A DNA stretch of 64,000 bases, from positions 3,193,532-3,257,531 of the forward strand of contig CP070695.1 in NCBI GenBank assembly GCA_020353515.1. The letters are read 5' to 3'. Shown here one piece after another: positions 17,282-30,836 of this stretch (the stretch's first letter is position 1; every line of letters starts with the position of its first letter). Both the position numbers and the translations under genes were made by a program. The notes beneath the pieces are model-generated. The model saw only the letters and a list, made by a program, of their open reading frames with translations. It made no database searches and was not told the origin of the DNA. This DNA is from Candidatus Heimdallarchaeota archaeon. GTDB lineage: Archaea; Asgardarchaeota; Heimdallarchaeia; Hodarchaeales; Hodarchaeaceae.

Positions 17282-17893
17282 ATGCCCAAGTCTTCCCTTA
17301 GAGCGAAAATATTATTGATCGGAGATGGTGGAGTGGGGAAAAGTTCATTTCGTCGGGCTTGGCTTGGTGAAACCTTTCGCACCCAGTATATTATGACTCT
17401 TGGGGCGGATTTTGCAGCTAAAGAGATTACTCAATTCTACCCTCCAACAAATACCTATTTTACAATTAAATACCAAATTTGGGATCTTGCAGGCCAACCT
17501 AGGTTTAAAGTTGTTAGCGACCTTTATTACCGAGGTGCGGTCGGTGCTCTTTGTTTTTTTGACATCACAGATCAAGGTTCCTTTACAAATCTCATGGAAT
17601 GGATTAATTCTTATTGGAATCTAAATGGTCAGGGTAAACGACCTCTTTTAATCATAGGGGCAAAGAGTGATCTTCGGAAAAGTCCTAATTTTCCAAATCA
17701 AGTATCCTCTCAACATGGTTTAGAACTAGCAGACAGACTCACAAAAAGTGTCCAAACTGACCACAAATTTAGTATCTATTATGTTGAAACTTCAGCTAAA
17801 GAAAACATCAATGTAGAGAAAGCCTTTCAACTATTAGGAACTGAAGTTATCAAACTATACTATCAAATGATAACACCTATCTTTCAAAAATGA
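17282..17893 (+). CDS. Rab-like small GTPase
   Basis: GDGGVGKS, TLGADF, QIWDLAGQPRF, YYRGAVGA, GAKSDL, ETSAK. Confidence 0.95.
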   Translation: MPKSSLRAKILLIGDGGVGKSSFRRAWLGETFRTQYIMTLGADFAAKEITQFYPPTNTYFTIKYQIWDLAGQPRFKVVSDLYYRGAVGALCFFDITDQGSFTNLMEWINSYWNLNGQGKRPLLIIGAKSDLRKSPNFPNQVSSQHGLELADRLTKSVQTDHKFSIYYVETSAKENINVEKAFQLLGTEVIKLYYQMITPIFQK

Positions 17894-25864: not shown

Positions 25865-27529
25865 ATGTCTGTTGAAAAACTAATAGCTGATCTTTCATCT
25901 CCAAACGAAGATCTTAGGAAAAACGCGGTAGATGAAATTTACGAGTTGATTTCTGCAAATCCCAATGAACTGACCCCTCATATACGTTCTTTTTTGAAAG
26001 TAATTCGTACAACATCTGATAATTATATTTTTCAGTATCTAGGCAGTACAATTTCGACTATAGCTTCATCAGTACCTTCTTTAGGAACAGATTATTTTGA
26101 TGATATCCTTGAGACGGTTACAGTTTTAACAGAGAATTTTGCTATGGATGATGAATCCGAAGGATTTGTAGGTATCTGTGCAATAGGTCTATTAGAAACC
26201 ATTCGACAACCAATAACAACAGATCCACGAAAATTTATTGAGGCCTTACCTACATTCTTTAAATTAATGGAAAAAGACCATTCAGTAAAATACAGTGCGA
26301 TGGGTTATGTATCACCCATGGTTAGTCGTAGTCCCCGCATATTCAAGGACTATGTTCCTCAGATCTTTGATCTAGTAAAAGGTGGAATGACAGAGATGAT
26401 TTCTCTGCTATGGGAGTTATACAAATTCAATCCGCCTTTTTATGAAGAAAATATTGATTTCTTGCTTCAGATGGCTAAAGATGTGAATTATTCAAGTATC
26501 GCCTTGATGATTCTAAACGAAATGGCAAAGAAGAATAGTACTATCATGAATCCCTATATCAAGGATCTGAAAGATACAATCCACTCGCCTCATACCGCCT
26601 CAAGTAGTATTATGATTTTTAGCGAAATTGCTCGTAATAATCCAGAATTAATTCAACCAATTCTTCCAGAAATTCAGGAAGCGATGGAGTACAACAATAC
26701 TCTTAAAATGATGGCCCCAAACATTTTTGGGCTTGTTGGTCGGATGTCAGTCAAAATCGCAGCCGAACTTCTTCCCTTTCTTGTAGAACTACTCGATGAC
26801 CCTGATCATAATGTACACACTGTAACTTTGATGGAAATACGGAACCTCGGAGAAATGGATCGCTCCTTACTAGATCCATACATTGAGAAAATAAGAACTT
26901 TAGAAGATGACCCCCAGGAATACATCCGAGATCAAGCGAAATATATTGTTGATATTTATGAAGGGAGAACAGTTCGTGAATTTGCTGCTGCAATCGATGA
27001 TCATAACAAGAGAATCAGTGAAATGGTGCATTCTTATGAAGATCTCAAGGCATATGTTGATGAGAATGTTTCTGAGCTCAAGGAATTCATATCTCAAATT
27101 GCGAAAAAACTTCCTATCCCTTCTGAATTTTCAACTGAAGGACGGATCAGGAAAACCATGAAACTGCATTTTACCTGTGGTATGCAAAATGATCGGTGTT
27201 TATATCCATCTGATAGAAGTTTTACTGCTGAAACCAAAGCATGGAATAAATGGTTGAAGATTGCACTTTCTGCTGTTAAAATAGGAGCTGCTGTTATTCA
27301 TCCTGTAGCTGCAGGAGGAGCAGTAGACGCGGTAAAAGACGTATATGAGGTATATAGAACAAAAGATGATGCAGACTTTATAAGTTATATTTCACAGCCG
27401 TTCTTGACATCTGAAGAGCAGGATAACCTCATCGTTCAACTTCGAAAAGCTAGGTTTTTTGATATATTTAACTATAACGCTCAACAGGGAAATTGGGCAT
27501 GCCTTATGTGTAATCCTCCAGGTAGCTGA
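25865..27529 (+). CDS. HEAT/ARM-repeat protein with VEPH1/Melted-like C-terminal Cys-containing domain
   Basis: Helical repeats (LLDDPDHNV, LEDDPQEYIR). C-terminal KKLPIP, LHFTC..CLY, RFFDIF...WACLMCNPP. Confidence 0.75.
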   Translation: MSVEKLIADLSSPNEDLRKNAVDEIYELISANPNELTPHIRSFLKVIRTTSDNYIFQYLGSTISTIASSVPSLGTDYFDDILETVTVLTENFAMDDESEGFVGICAIGLLETIRQPITTDPRKFIEALPTFFKLMEKDHSVKYSAMGYVSPMVSRSPRIFKDYVPQIFDLVKGGMTEMISLLWELYKFNPPFYEENIDFLLQMAKDVNYSSIALMILNEMAKKNSTIMNPYIKDLKDTIHSPHTASSSIMIFSEIARNNPELIQPILPEIQEAMEYNNTLKMMAPNIFGLVGRMSVKIAAELLPFLVELLDDPDHNVHTVTLMEIRNLGEMDRSLLDPYIEKIRTLEDDPQEYIRDQAKYIVDIYEGRTVREFAAAIDDHNKRISEMVHSYEDLKAYVDENVSELKEFISQIAKKLPIPSEFSTEGRIRKTMKLHFTCGMQNDRCLYPSDRSFTAETKAWNKWLKIALSAVKIGAAVIHPVAAGGAVDAVKDVYEVYRTKDDADFISYISQPFLTSEEQDNLIVQLRKARFFDIFNYNAQQGNWACLMCNPPGS

Positions 27530-29327: not shown

Positions 29328-30836
29328 ATGACCTCTATGTTTCTTCAAGCGATTCGACCATTTATGTCAATCACACCAGAAGTTGTCAAACCGCCTCGTG
29401 AGGTTCATTTCAATGAAAAAGTAATGTGGACATTTGCAGCTTTGGTTATTTATTTTGTAATGGCATCTACTCCAATTATTGGAGCTCATTATGAAGGAGC
29501 TGACCCTATCGCACTTATGCGGATTATTACAGCCTCAACTCGAGGATCGCTGGCAGAGCTCGGAATTGGCCCAATTGTAACAGCAGGACTCATTATGCAA
29601 ATACTAGTAGGATCCAAAATTATTTCTGTGAATATGGGAGACCCTGAGGAAAGAGCTCTCTATACAGGAGCACAAAAGGTTATGTCAGTTGCATTAACAG
29701 TTATTGAAGCAACTGCATTCTTAATTGGGGGAACTTATGGTTCTAATCTAATTCTTCAGGACCAGTTAGCTATCATTGCCCAATTATTAGCAGCAGGTAT
29801 CATAATCATTCTCCTAGATGAGATGATTCAGAAAGGTTGGGGATTAGGATCAGGTATTTCTTTATTCATTGCAGGGGGGGTTGGTTTACAAATTTTTCAA
29901 GGATTGTTTGCACAACAAACTTTCTACGAAGGACCAAACAATCGAGTAGAGTCAAGGAGAGGTATTGCTCTTGCTTTTCTTGCGTGGATATCACAGCGGG
30001 GTCCGATTGAAGCAATTGGAGCATTATTTTTCCGATACAGTCCAACCGAGAGTATAAATTTACCTTCCCTCTCTCTCCTTTCTGTGATAGCTTCCATTGT
30101 AGTGTTCATTGTTGTAATCTATTTTGAATCCATGCGAATTGAAATCCCAATCTCGTATGCCCAGTACAAGGGCATCCGATCCATTTATCCTATTAAACTG
30201 CTTTATGTATCGAATATCCCCGTCATTTTAACTTCAGCTGTTTTTGCTGATATCTATTTTATTACTCAAATGGTTTGGAATGCTAGTGGGGGACCAAATA
30301 GAACAATAACCAATCCACTCGCGCTATTTTTAGGGACATTTAGAATTGATGAAACAACTCAGCAATATGTTCCTGTATCTGGTCTTGTTTATTATTTGAC
30401 CCCACCTCAGTCTTTTGTTGGCGAGGCTGGATTTCTAAATGTAGCAAAACCAATTGAATCTATGTTCCGTGCCTTGGTGTACGCCATATTTCTTGTCATT
30501 CTTTGTGTAATCTTTTCAGCAATGTGGTTGGAAACAGCGGGAATGGGTTCACGAGATGTTGCACGACAGCTATTACAATCTGGAATGCAGGTACCAGGTT
30601 GGCGACGATGTGAGAAAATGGTTCAACGAAGATTAGAAATGTACATTCCTACAATAGCTTTGATGGGTGGATTATTTATTGGGATTTTAGCAGCTTTTGC
30701 AGATTTTTTTGGTGCTATCGGATCTGGTATGGGCATTCTCCTCTCTGTCAGCATTATAAGACAATACATTGATCTTATTAGCAAAGAAAAAGTTGCTGAA
30801 ATGAATCCTTCTTTACGCAGTTTTTTAGGGATATAA
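29328..30836 (+). CDS. secY: Protein translocase subunit SecY/Sec61-alpha
   Basis: GSLAELGIGPIVTAGLIMQIL, KGWGLGSGISLFIA, YPIKLLYVSNIPVIL, GAIGSGMGILL. Confidence 0.97.
   Translation: MTSMFLQAIRPFMSITPEVVKPPREVHFNEKVMWTFAALVIYFVMASTPIIGAHYEGADPIALMRIITASTRGSLAELGIGPIVTAGLIMQILVGSKIISVNMGDPEERALYTGAQKVMSVALTVIEATAFLIGGTYGSNLILQDQLAIIAQLLAAGIIIILLDEMIQKGWGLGSGISLFIAGGVGLQIFQGLFAQQTFYEGPNNRVESRRGIALAFLAWISQRGPIEAIGALFFRYSPTESINLPSLSLLSVIASIVVFIVVIYFESMRIEIPISYAQYKGIRSIYPIKLLYVSNIPVILTSAVFADIYFITQMVWNASGGPNRTITNPLALFLGTFRIDETTQQYVPVSGLVYYLTPPQSFVGEAGFLNVAKPIESMFRALVYAIFLVILCVIFSAMWLETAGMGSRDVARQLLQSGMQVPGWRRCEKMVQRRLEMYIPTIALMGGLFIGILAAFADFFGAIGSGMGILLSVSIIRQYIDLISKEKVAEMNPSLRSFLGI

Follow-up and report, generated by a model that had tools for sequence, protein, structure and literature searches.

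Melted of Drosophila and other invertebrates and VEPH1 of vertebrates contain an N-terminal region of the ARM/HEAT type and a PH domain. Only the ARM and PH domains are listed in a review that places the emergence of VEPH1 with the pseudocoelomates, and the same review, the source for an adaptor role at membranes, reports binding of ALK5 by the N-terminal region of VEPH1 and of TSC1 and FoxO by Melted (PMC6734325). A gene related to this family lies in a stretch of 64,000 nucleotides (the window) of Candidatus Heimdallarchaeota archaeon, contig CP070695.1. The gene starts with ATG at window position 25865 on the forward strand, its stop codon ends at 27529, and it predicts a protein of 554 amino acids (aa), P0001. 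The opposite strand of this segment is closed by many stops. P0001 consists of a HEAT solenoid, a stalk and an alpha/beta domain with four conserved cysteines (the Cys4 domain), and these three parts are homologous to and collinear with Melted, where the ARM/HEAT region is followed by the Cys4 domain in the same order. P0001 is a PH-less relative of the VEPH1/Melted core and not a full member of the family, because the PH domain is absent. The elements of the gene are as follows.

25865..27529, + strand: gene for the VEPH1/Melted-core protein P0001 (554 aa), single copy, stand-alone, with codon use and GC content at third codon positions (GC3) typical of the genome
25865..26962, + strand: HEAT/ARM solenoid, aa 1-366, from Pfam, AlphaFold and profile alignment; aa 53-366 align with the N-terminal ARM-like region of Melted
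26963..27112, + strand: helical stalk or coiled coil, aa 367-416, from AlphaFold; the animal low-complexity linker, mostly 140-380 aa, inserts at the same place
27113..27520, + strand: undescribed alpha/beta Cys4 domain, aa 417-552 (~135 aa), without a Pfam family or any solved relative found; the match with Melted has TM 0.81
27176..27199, + strand: C438 and C445, which form the first Cys pair and are probable ligands of a metal; invariant in Asgard copies, with C445 missing from 36 protist domains that have also lost C546 and C549
27242..27364, + strand: hydrophobic helical hairpin rich in Gly and Ala, aa 460-500, where the full-length model has its lowest confidence; candidate surface for contacts
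27500..27511, + strand: second Cys pair, C546-x-x-C549; P0001 ends 5 aa later, eukaryotic proteins run on into PH or FYVE

The homology is real and well supported. A profile of aa 366-552 built from 38 prokaryotic sequences only found 379 proteins among 1.84 billion, and the matches named melted or VEPH1 came from spider (E 4e-24, the best), octopus, isopod, damselfly, barnacle and sea urchin. In nearly all of these, a PH domain begins directly behind the matched segment. An Asgard-only profile scored 19 Melted domains at 82-106 bits, compared with at most 7.3 bits for reversed and 12.5 bits for shuffled controls. Over the full length, profile-profile alignment (hhalign) gave a probability of 100 and E 2e-50 across 494 columns, covering residues 53-554 with one large animal insertion. 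BLASTP of P0001 against octopus Melted returned two collinear blocks (E 7e-24 for the domain and 5e-7 for the solenoid), and profile scores for the N-terminal ARM/HEAT region were near or above 200 bits. In a structure search of the Atlas with whole P0001, Melted and VEPH1 clusters ranked top, and the model of the Cys4 domain matched Melted with TM 0.81 and a root-mean-square deviation (rmsd) of 2.4 over 154 residues, the next row scoring 0.33. The Melted sequences compared were named spider, octopus, crustacean, insect and sea-urchin proteins, with chordate VEPH1 clusters entering by structure only. Melted/VEPH1 was the only named family among the profile matches looked up and the top structure rows, all searches running from archaeon to animal. 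HEAT repeats match many proteins, and the similarity might be put down to generic repeat likeness and a chance Cys motif; however, the non-repeat domain alone finds Melted at scores far above controls and shares its predicted fold, and this explanation, refuted by the profile search, hhalign, structure match and control scores, retains practically no probability.

Identity to VEPH1/Melted is 22-30% in the domain and 22% over solenoid and domain, and the predicted folds are alike. P0001 differs in the absence of the PH domain and of the long low-complexity linker, and in its first ~50 aa. At the centre of the domain, the motif reads W-x-K-W-L-K in archaea and protists but W-I-H-L-M-F in animals. 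A sequence-only reading of the locus had proposed the relationship to VEPH1/Melted, and the four archaeal blocks it quoted are all present (aa 287-328, 397-419, 434-447 and 530-552), with the C-terminal residues that it singled out for comparison significantly matched by the profile search above. Its further statements that the PH domain and the disordered linker are missing are also correct. In the Melted consensus, the PH domain starts ~15 aa past the CxxC motif; the stop codon of P0001 follows 5 aa after C549, ~15 aa ahead of where the PH domain of Melted starts, and the next gene is a convergent PHP hydrolase gene. The large insertion in the hhalign alignment is on the animal side, and the archaeal solenoid and domain are separated by 19 residues.

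The predicted solenoid was likewise borne out. Pfam detects HEAT-type repeats (Adaptin_N with E 6e-9, below the curated cut-off, and HEAT_EZ with 3e-6), and the AlphaFold model has helical repeats over aa 3-366, with predicted local distance difference test (pLDDT) values mostly >90, then two long helices to aa 415 and the alpha/beta domain. A Pfam scan of aa 366-554 gave no match, PH included, and P0001 lacks any membrane-spanning helix as well as PH and FYVE domains. Searches of the PDB by sequence and by fold with full P0001 returned generic HEAT matches only. The adaptin/coatomer trunk and karyopherin solenoids share the HEAT solenoid fold with P0001; the similarity is of the generic repeat type (TM ≤0.47) and leaves the Cys4 domain unmatched.

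Folded alone with 141 sequences, aa 387-552 reached pLDDT 88 and a predicted template modelling score (pTM) of 0.83. Conservation of the four cysteines, also claimed from the sequence, is near complete, with C438, C445, C546 and C549 invariant in 35/35 Asgard copies and in 18/19 Melted domains. Protist domains fall into 35 with all four Cys and 36 that retain C438 only and have lost both the C445 loop and the CxxC motif, a joint loss that fits one common metal site. A single zinc ion is predicted at the four Cys. The hairpin at aa 460-500 has a best 19-residue hydropathy average of 1.24, which is under that of a typical membrane-spanning helix. No Pfam family was found for the domain, and no solved relative was found by Foldseek at E 0.001, the best VIA Z being 3.5, a result that leaves a new fold unproven. 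An apparent relationship to ATP synthase delta (E 1e-4 over 48 helical positions) was rejected as a short helical match unseen by fold. No catalytic motif is evident in the family, where conservation falls mainly on Pro, aromatic, Leu and Cys residues.

The sequence-only reading had taken animal VEPH1/Melted as the counterpart. The homology stands, but the nearest eukaryotic relatives, and the best eukaryotic matches of the archaeal profile, are protist proteins. These come from Cavostelium (Amoebozoa), Diphylleia (CRuMs), Rhodelphis, the dinoflagellates Polykrikos and Cladocopium, the stramenopile Phaeomonas and Capsaspora (CAOG_04144, Filasterea), and have HEAT, stalk and domain like P0001, the HEAT regions also being homologous to the archaeal solenoid. 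The Cavostelium protein, with HEAT, coiled coil, domain and PH, has the highest domain identity to P0001 (50%). Many of the protist proteins differ from P0001 in an added PH (as in Diphylleia), FYVE (as in Capsaspora) or ankyrin-FYVE segment, and some feature long coiled coils, the domain three times in tandem, or the loss of all but one Cys. The exact archaeal spacing of 19 residues is found in several protists, whereas animals have 143-379 with one exception at 61, and several protists carry a long coiled coil in place of the animal linker. Two Phaeomonas parva proteins (P0052 and P0239) exceed 2100 aa and have three tandem stalk and domain units. As members occur in Amoebozoa, CRuMs, Rhodelphis, alveolates, stramenopiles, Filasterea and animals, many carrying PH or FYVE, the family probably dates back to the last common ancestor of eukaryotes (LECA); this spread is represented mostly by one named protein per protist group, most other protist-like matches being unnamed. 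Both review statements, the pseudocoelomate origin and the restriction to ARM and PH domains, are too narrow.

About 50 full-length prokaryotic copies were identified (540-580 aa, 36-89% identical), in Hodarchaeales, Kariarchaeaceae, other Heimdallarchaeia and Thorarchaeia, and the closest relatives of P0001 are labelled Hodarchaeota or Promethearchaeota. Their tree resolves a Thor clade (100), clades of the families designated f6 (94) and f5 (100), and Hodarchaeales branches; one Hodarchaeota-labelled row sits in the Thor clade, and the labels of that data set elsewhere disagree with genome taxonomy. That the tree follows Asgard taxonomy points to descent from a Thor-Heimdall ancestor with many losses, and the several divergent uses of the domain in Asgard genomes are as expected of an old resident. 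Native codon use (GC3 0.29 versus 0.28 for the genome, codon use ordinary) and the archaeal spacing in several protists also support this ancestry. From these sequence comparisons, it is reasonably likely that the ancestor shared by eukaryotes with the Thor- and Heimdall-group Asgard archaea already had the family, which was then inherited with many losses, an ancestry that is likely though unproven. The broader reading, in which P0001 represents a prokaryotic VEPH1/Melted core that is ancestral to Asgard archaea and eukaryotes, serves as a soluble non-enzymatic scaffold and is often lost, is favoured a little less firmly; the co-loss of Cys also counts in its favour.

Several observations weigh against this broader reading. 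The intact gene is patchily distributed, occurring in 14/400 Asgard genomes, many of them incomplete, with 7/12 in family f6, 2/3 in f5, 1/2 in f2 and two Thor-group genomes among them. In its own genus, 1/21 further members has it intact and several near-complete members lack it, and the largest Asgard family (135 genomes) yielded a single eroded trace. The gene also moves, as two bacterial full-length copies were found, both in bacterial gene surroundings. The best-scoring tree among those compared places the prokaryotic copies beside amoebozoan-like proteins, 9.8 log units over eukaryote monophyly, a non-significant difference. Eroded or cut pieces of the gene are present in about six further Asgard genomes, and the gene appears to be dispensable in most Asgard genomes. 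Eroded remnants with internal stops were seen at L018 and L019 (genomes G070 and G069, at one locus) and L020 (G233).

The planctomycete copy (L033:2873-4516) adjoins purA, uppS and phoH in a 12.3-Mb metagenome-assembled genome (MAG), and the gene was detected in 1/401 Planctomycetota genomes; the myxobacterial copy (L038:5001-6671) is in the Myxococcales MAG HK-STAS-MYXO-32. Both sit on long branches within the archaeal clade and are read for that reason as transfers from archaea. A pattern scan across 185,579 species genomes turned up 14 loci, one of them bacterial, and the second bacterial copy was found by profile; as the scan missed the myxobacterial copy, a few more bacterial copies may exist. 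The wide bacterial spread that the sequence-only reading had named as evidence to the contrary thus reduces to two stray copies. The family was not found in viral contigs and plasmids. A divergent HEAT and domain protein without the stalk (P0141, L040:1123-2673), on a low-GC prokaryote-like contig, branches off the main archaeal clade.

In the tree of solenoid and domain (409 columns), the prokaryotic copies come out as a single clade (82), and Melted clusters with CRuMs-like proteins (85). Monophyly of the eukaryotic proteins was not rejected by approximately unbiased (AU) tests (p-AU 0.76, 0.66, 0.70 and 0.32 across tests), the direct comparison giving p 0.32 for monophyly versus 0.80 for nesting beside amoebozoan-like proteins. 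Little trust is placed in the deep nodes, because free tree searches scored below constrained ones and did not converge. These trees bear on a different history, in which an early eukaryotic, amoebozoan-like gene entered one Asgard lineage, lost PH and spread sideways to Heimdall and Thor archaea and a few bacteria; P0001 would then be a true homologue yet not an inherited eukaryotic signature protein. Such a transfer agrees with the amoebozoan-side nesting of the best compared tree, the domain identity to Cavostelium, the patchy spread, the eroded copies and the two bacterial copies. Repeated transfer need not, however, give an Asgard gene tree that follows family-level taxonomy. Asgard copies average 43% mutual identity and are as diverse as animal Melted (41%), the more divergent domain versions sit in Asgard fusions, and the AU test leaves eukaryote monophyly unrejected. 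Early transfer is considered unlikely, although it is the weightiest of the alternatives. Of the counter-case raised by the sequence-only reading, nesting inside eukaryotes through a recent transfer, the nesting agrees with the best tree compared, but a recent event is improbable. Recent import of the gene into this genome is ruled out by GC3, codon use and synteny with a close relative (G076).

The Cys4 domain is also used outside the HEAT form. It ends Roc-COR proteins, namely P0088, a split LRR-Roc gene pair (L036) and a eukaryotic Roco protein (P0149). The Roco (LRR-Roc-COR) loci L035:133-2295 and L036:364-3404, the latter with two open reading frames 122 bp apart, lie on prokaryote-like contigs. 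Other Asgard proteins with the domain at the C-terminus are a TPR protein, an FG-GAP/Ig membrane protein and a Helarchaeota LVIVD membrane protein. In L015:3174-5039, L016:856-8247, L017 and P0111, TPR, FG-GAP/Ig or LVIVD repeats lead into a common unnamed region of ~220 aa and then the domain, with a membrane helix ahead of the common region in two of them; no support was obtained for taking the segment ahead of the domain in P0111 and L015 as appendage-like. Cyanobacterial Roco C-termini, considered along with plant TORNADO1 as possible carriers, were rejected, as five plasmid Roco proteins gave no match.

A second, remote version of the domain is encoded in this genome (~C1:999877-1001838) in a 653-aa Roadblock-winged-helix-coiled-coil protein that is present in 18/20 members of the genus. 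The Cys-rich tail of this protein is probably a distant homologue of Melted's Cys4 domain, judging by a match to the family profile with probability 97.5 and E 8e-12 (10-31 bits versus controls ≤10.7) and by the ordered occurrence of the motifs P-x-P, F-x-C, W-x-K-L and terminal Cys; with an animal-only profile, the match is weak (probability 5.5, E 0.007). A small Roadblock-like gene precedes the 653-aa protein (L049:3468-5839; ~999467-1001838 on C1 of this genome, outside the window).

Occurrence behind repeat sensors in many architectures would also suit a mobile module for sensing or effector action, perhaps in conflict or defence signalling, that prokaryotes swap between LRR-Roc-COR, TPR and HEAT receptors. 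The HEAT version would then have entered the eukaryote stem from a prokaryotic pool and would work as a sensor-effector protein whose hairpin acts on membranes or drives assembly. Patchy gain and loss, pseudogenes, the lack of conserved neighbours and the hydrophobic Gly-rich hairpin agree with this. Against it, the full-length HEAT form is single copy and 36-60% conserved across Asgard classes, the Roadblock fusion is near-core in its genus, and the family is absent from the viral contigs and plasmids searched, with no mobile or defence genes adjoining the P0001 gene by Pfam and neighbour inspection. A mobile module is regarded as improbable.

P0001 most likely acts as a soluble, non-enzymatic scaffold. 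By analogy with binding of ALK5 by the N-terminal region of VEPH1 and of TSC1 and FoxO by Melted (PMC6734325), the solenoid would bind client proteins, among which small-GTPase or other signalling proteins are the likeliest in archaea. The predicted zinc ion held by the four Cys would pin the two beta-elements of the domain together. Stalk and domain would serve as a docking or self-assembly module, because unrelated proteins end in the same module and two long proteins of protist type carry it three times in tandem; these triplicated proteins, like the long coiled coils of protists, hint at a trimer. In eukaryotes, a phosphoinositide-binding PH or FYVE domain would have been placed right behind the domain, and animals would have inserted the linker. 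Reuse of the domain behind GTPase, Roadblock, TPR and membrane proteins, together with the repeated addition of PH or FYVE, suggests membrane-near signalling. The roles in FOXO/TSC-TOR, Hippo and TGF-beta signalling cited in the sequence-only reading belong to animal Melted/VEPH1, and their carry-over to the archaeon is not justified.

The P0001 gene is present once in the one-contig 4.94-Mb genome, between a FAD oxidoreductase gene and the convergent PHP hydrolase gene, with secY three genes away. This gene order is kept in one close relative only (G076), and no neighbours conserved across Asgard groups were seen. A bacterial-type promoter scan at the gene, a type of scan unsuited to archaea, stayed at chance level. 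The secY/Sec61-alpha gene (window 29328-30836, + strand) has no ribosomal protein genes among its immediate neighbours, and the order in G076 is identical. A Ras/Rab-like small GTPase (17282-17893, + strand; Pfam Ras E 2e-37) is encoded 8 kb upstream of the P0001 gene, and there was no sign of its linkage with the P0001 family in other genomes.

In the literature, no paper was found that joins VEPH1 or melted with Asgard archaea or LECA, the largest tables of eukaryotic signature proteins (ESPs; PMC12962969, 10.1101/2020.10.19.343400) lying outside the search. The supplements of 10.1101/2024.07.03.601958, PMC12872458 and PMC13261697 do not mention VEPH1 or melted, and no paper on Asgard Roco was found. 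The absence from reported Asgard ESPs noted in the sequence-only reading agrees with this search, and the family may already be present, unnamed, in the large supplementary tables. Like Asgard ESPs described previously (PMC12962969, PMC12872458), P0001 pairs a eukaryote-wide protein with a close Asgard homologue of simpler architecture and punctuated distribution; it differs from typical ESPs in its unproven inheritance, the two bacterial copies, and its lack of a name in the texts and supplements searched. With a wide spread in eukaryotes and rarity in bacteria and other archaea, the family is a candidate ESP.

What appears to be new here is a VEPH1/Melted family that spans eukaryote supergroups and Asgard archaea and has a third conserved domain, which is thereby defined in a human protein with links to cancer and growth signalling. 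Being compact and free of the linker, the archaeal protein offers a practical model for solving the structure of the VEPH1 core. As a candidate ESP, the family makes the step of lipid-binding-domain addition traceable, and a family assignment is offered for the zinc tail of the Hodarchaeales Roadblock scaffold. It is tentatively proposed, as a history more doubtful than the shared ancestry itself, that VEPH1/Melted derives from an Asgard scaffold, that stalk and Cys4 domain make up an interaction module of old Asgard origin, with which Roco GTPases and the Hodarchaeales Roadblock scaffold end as well, and that PH was added during eukaryogenesis. If true, this would link an animal modulator of TOR, FoxO and Hippo signalling to archaeal small-GTPase regulation.
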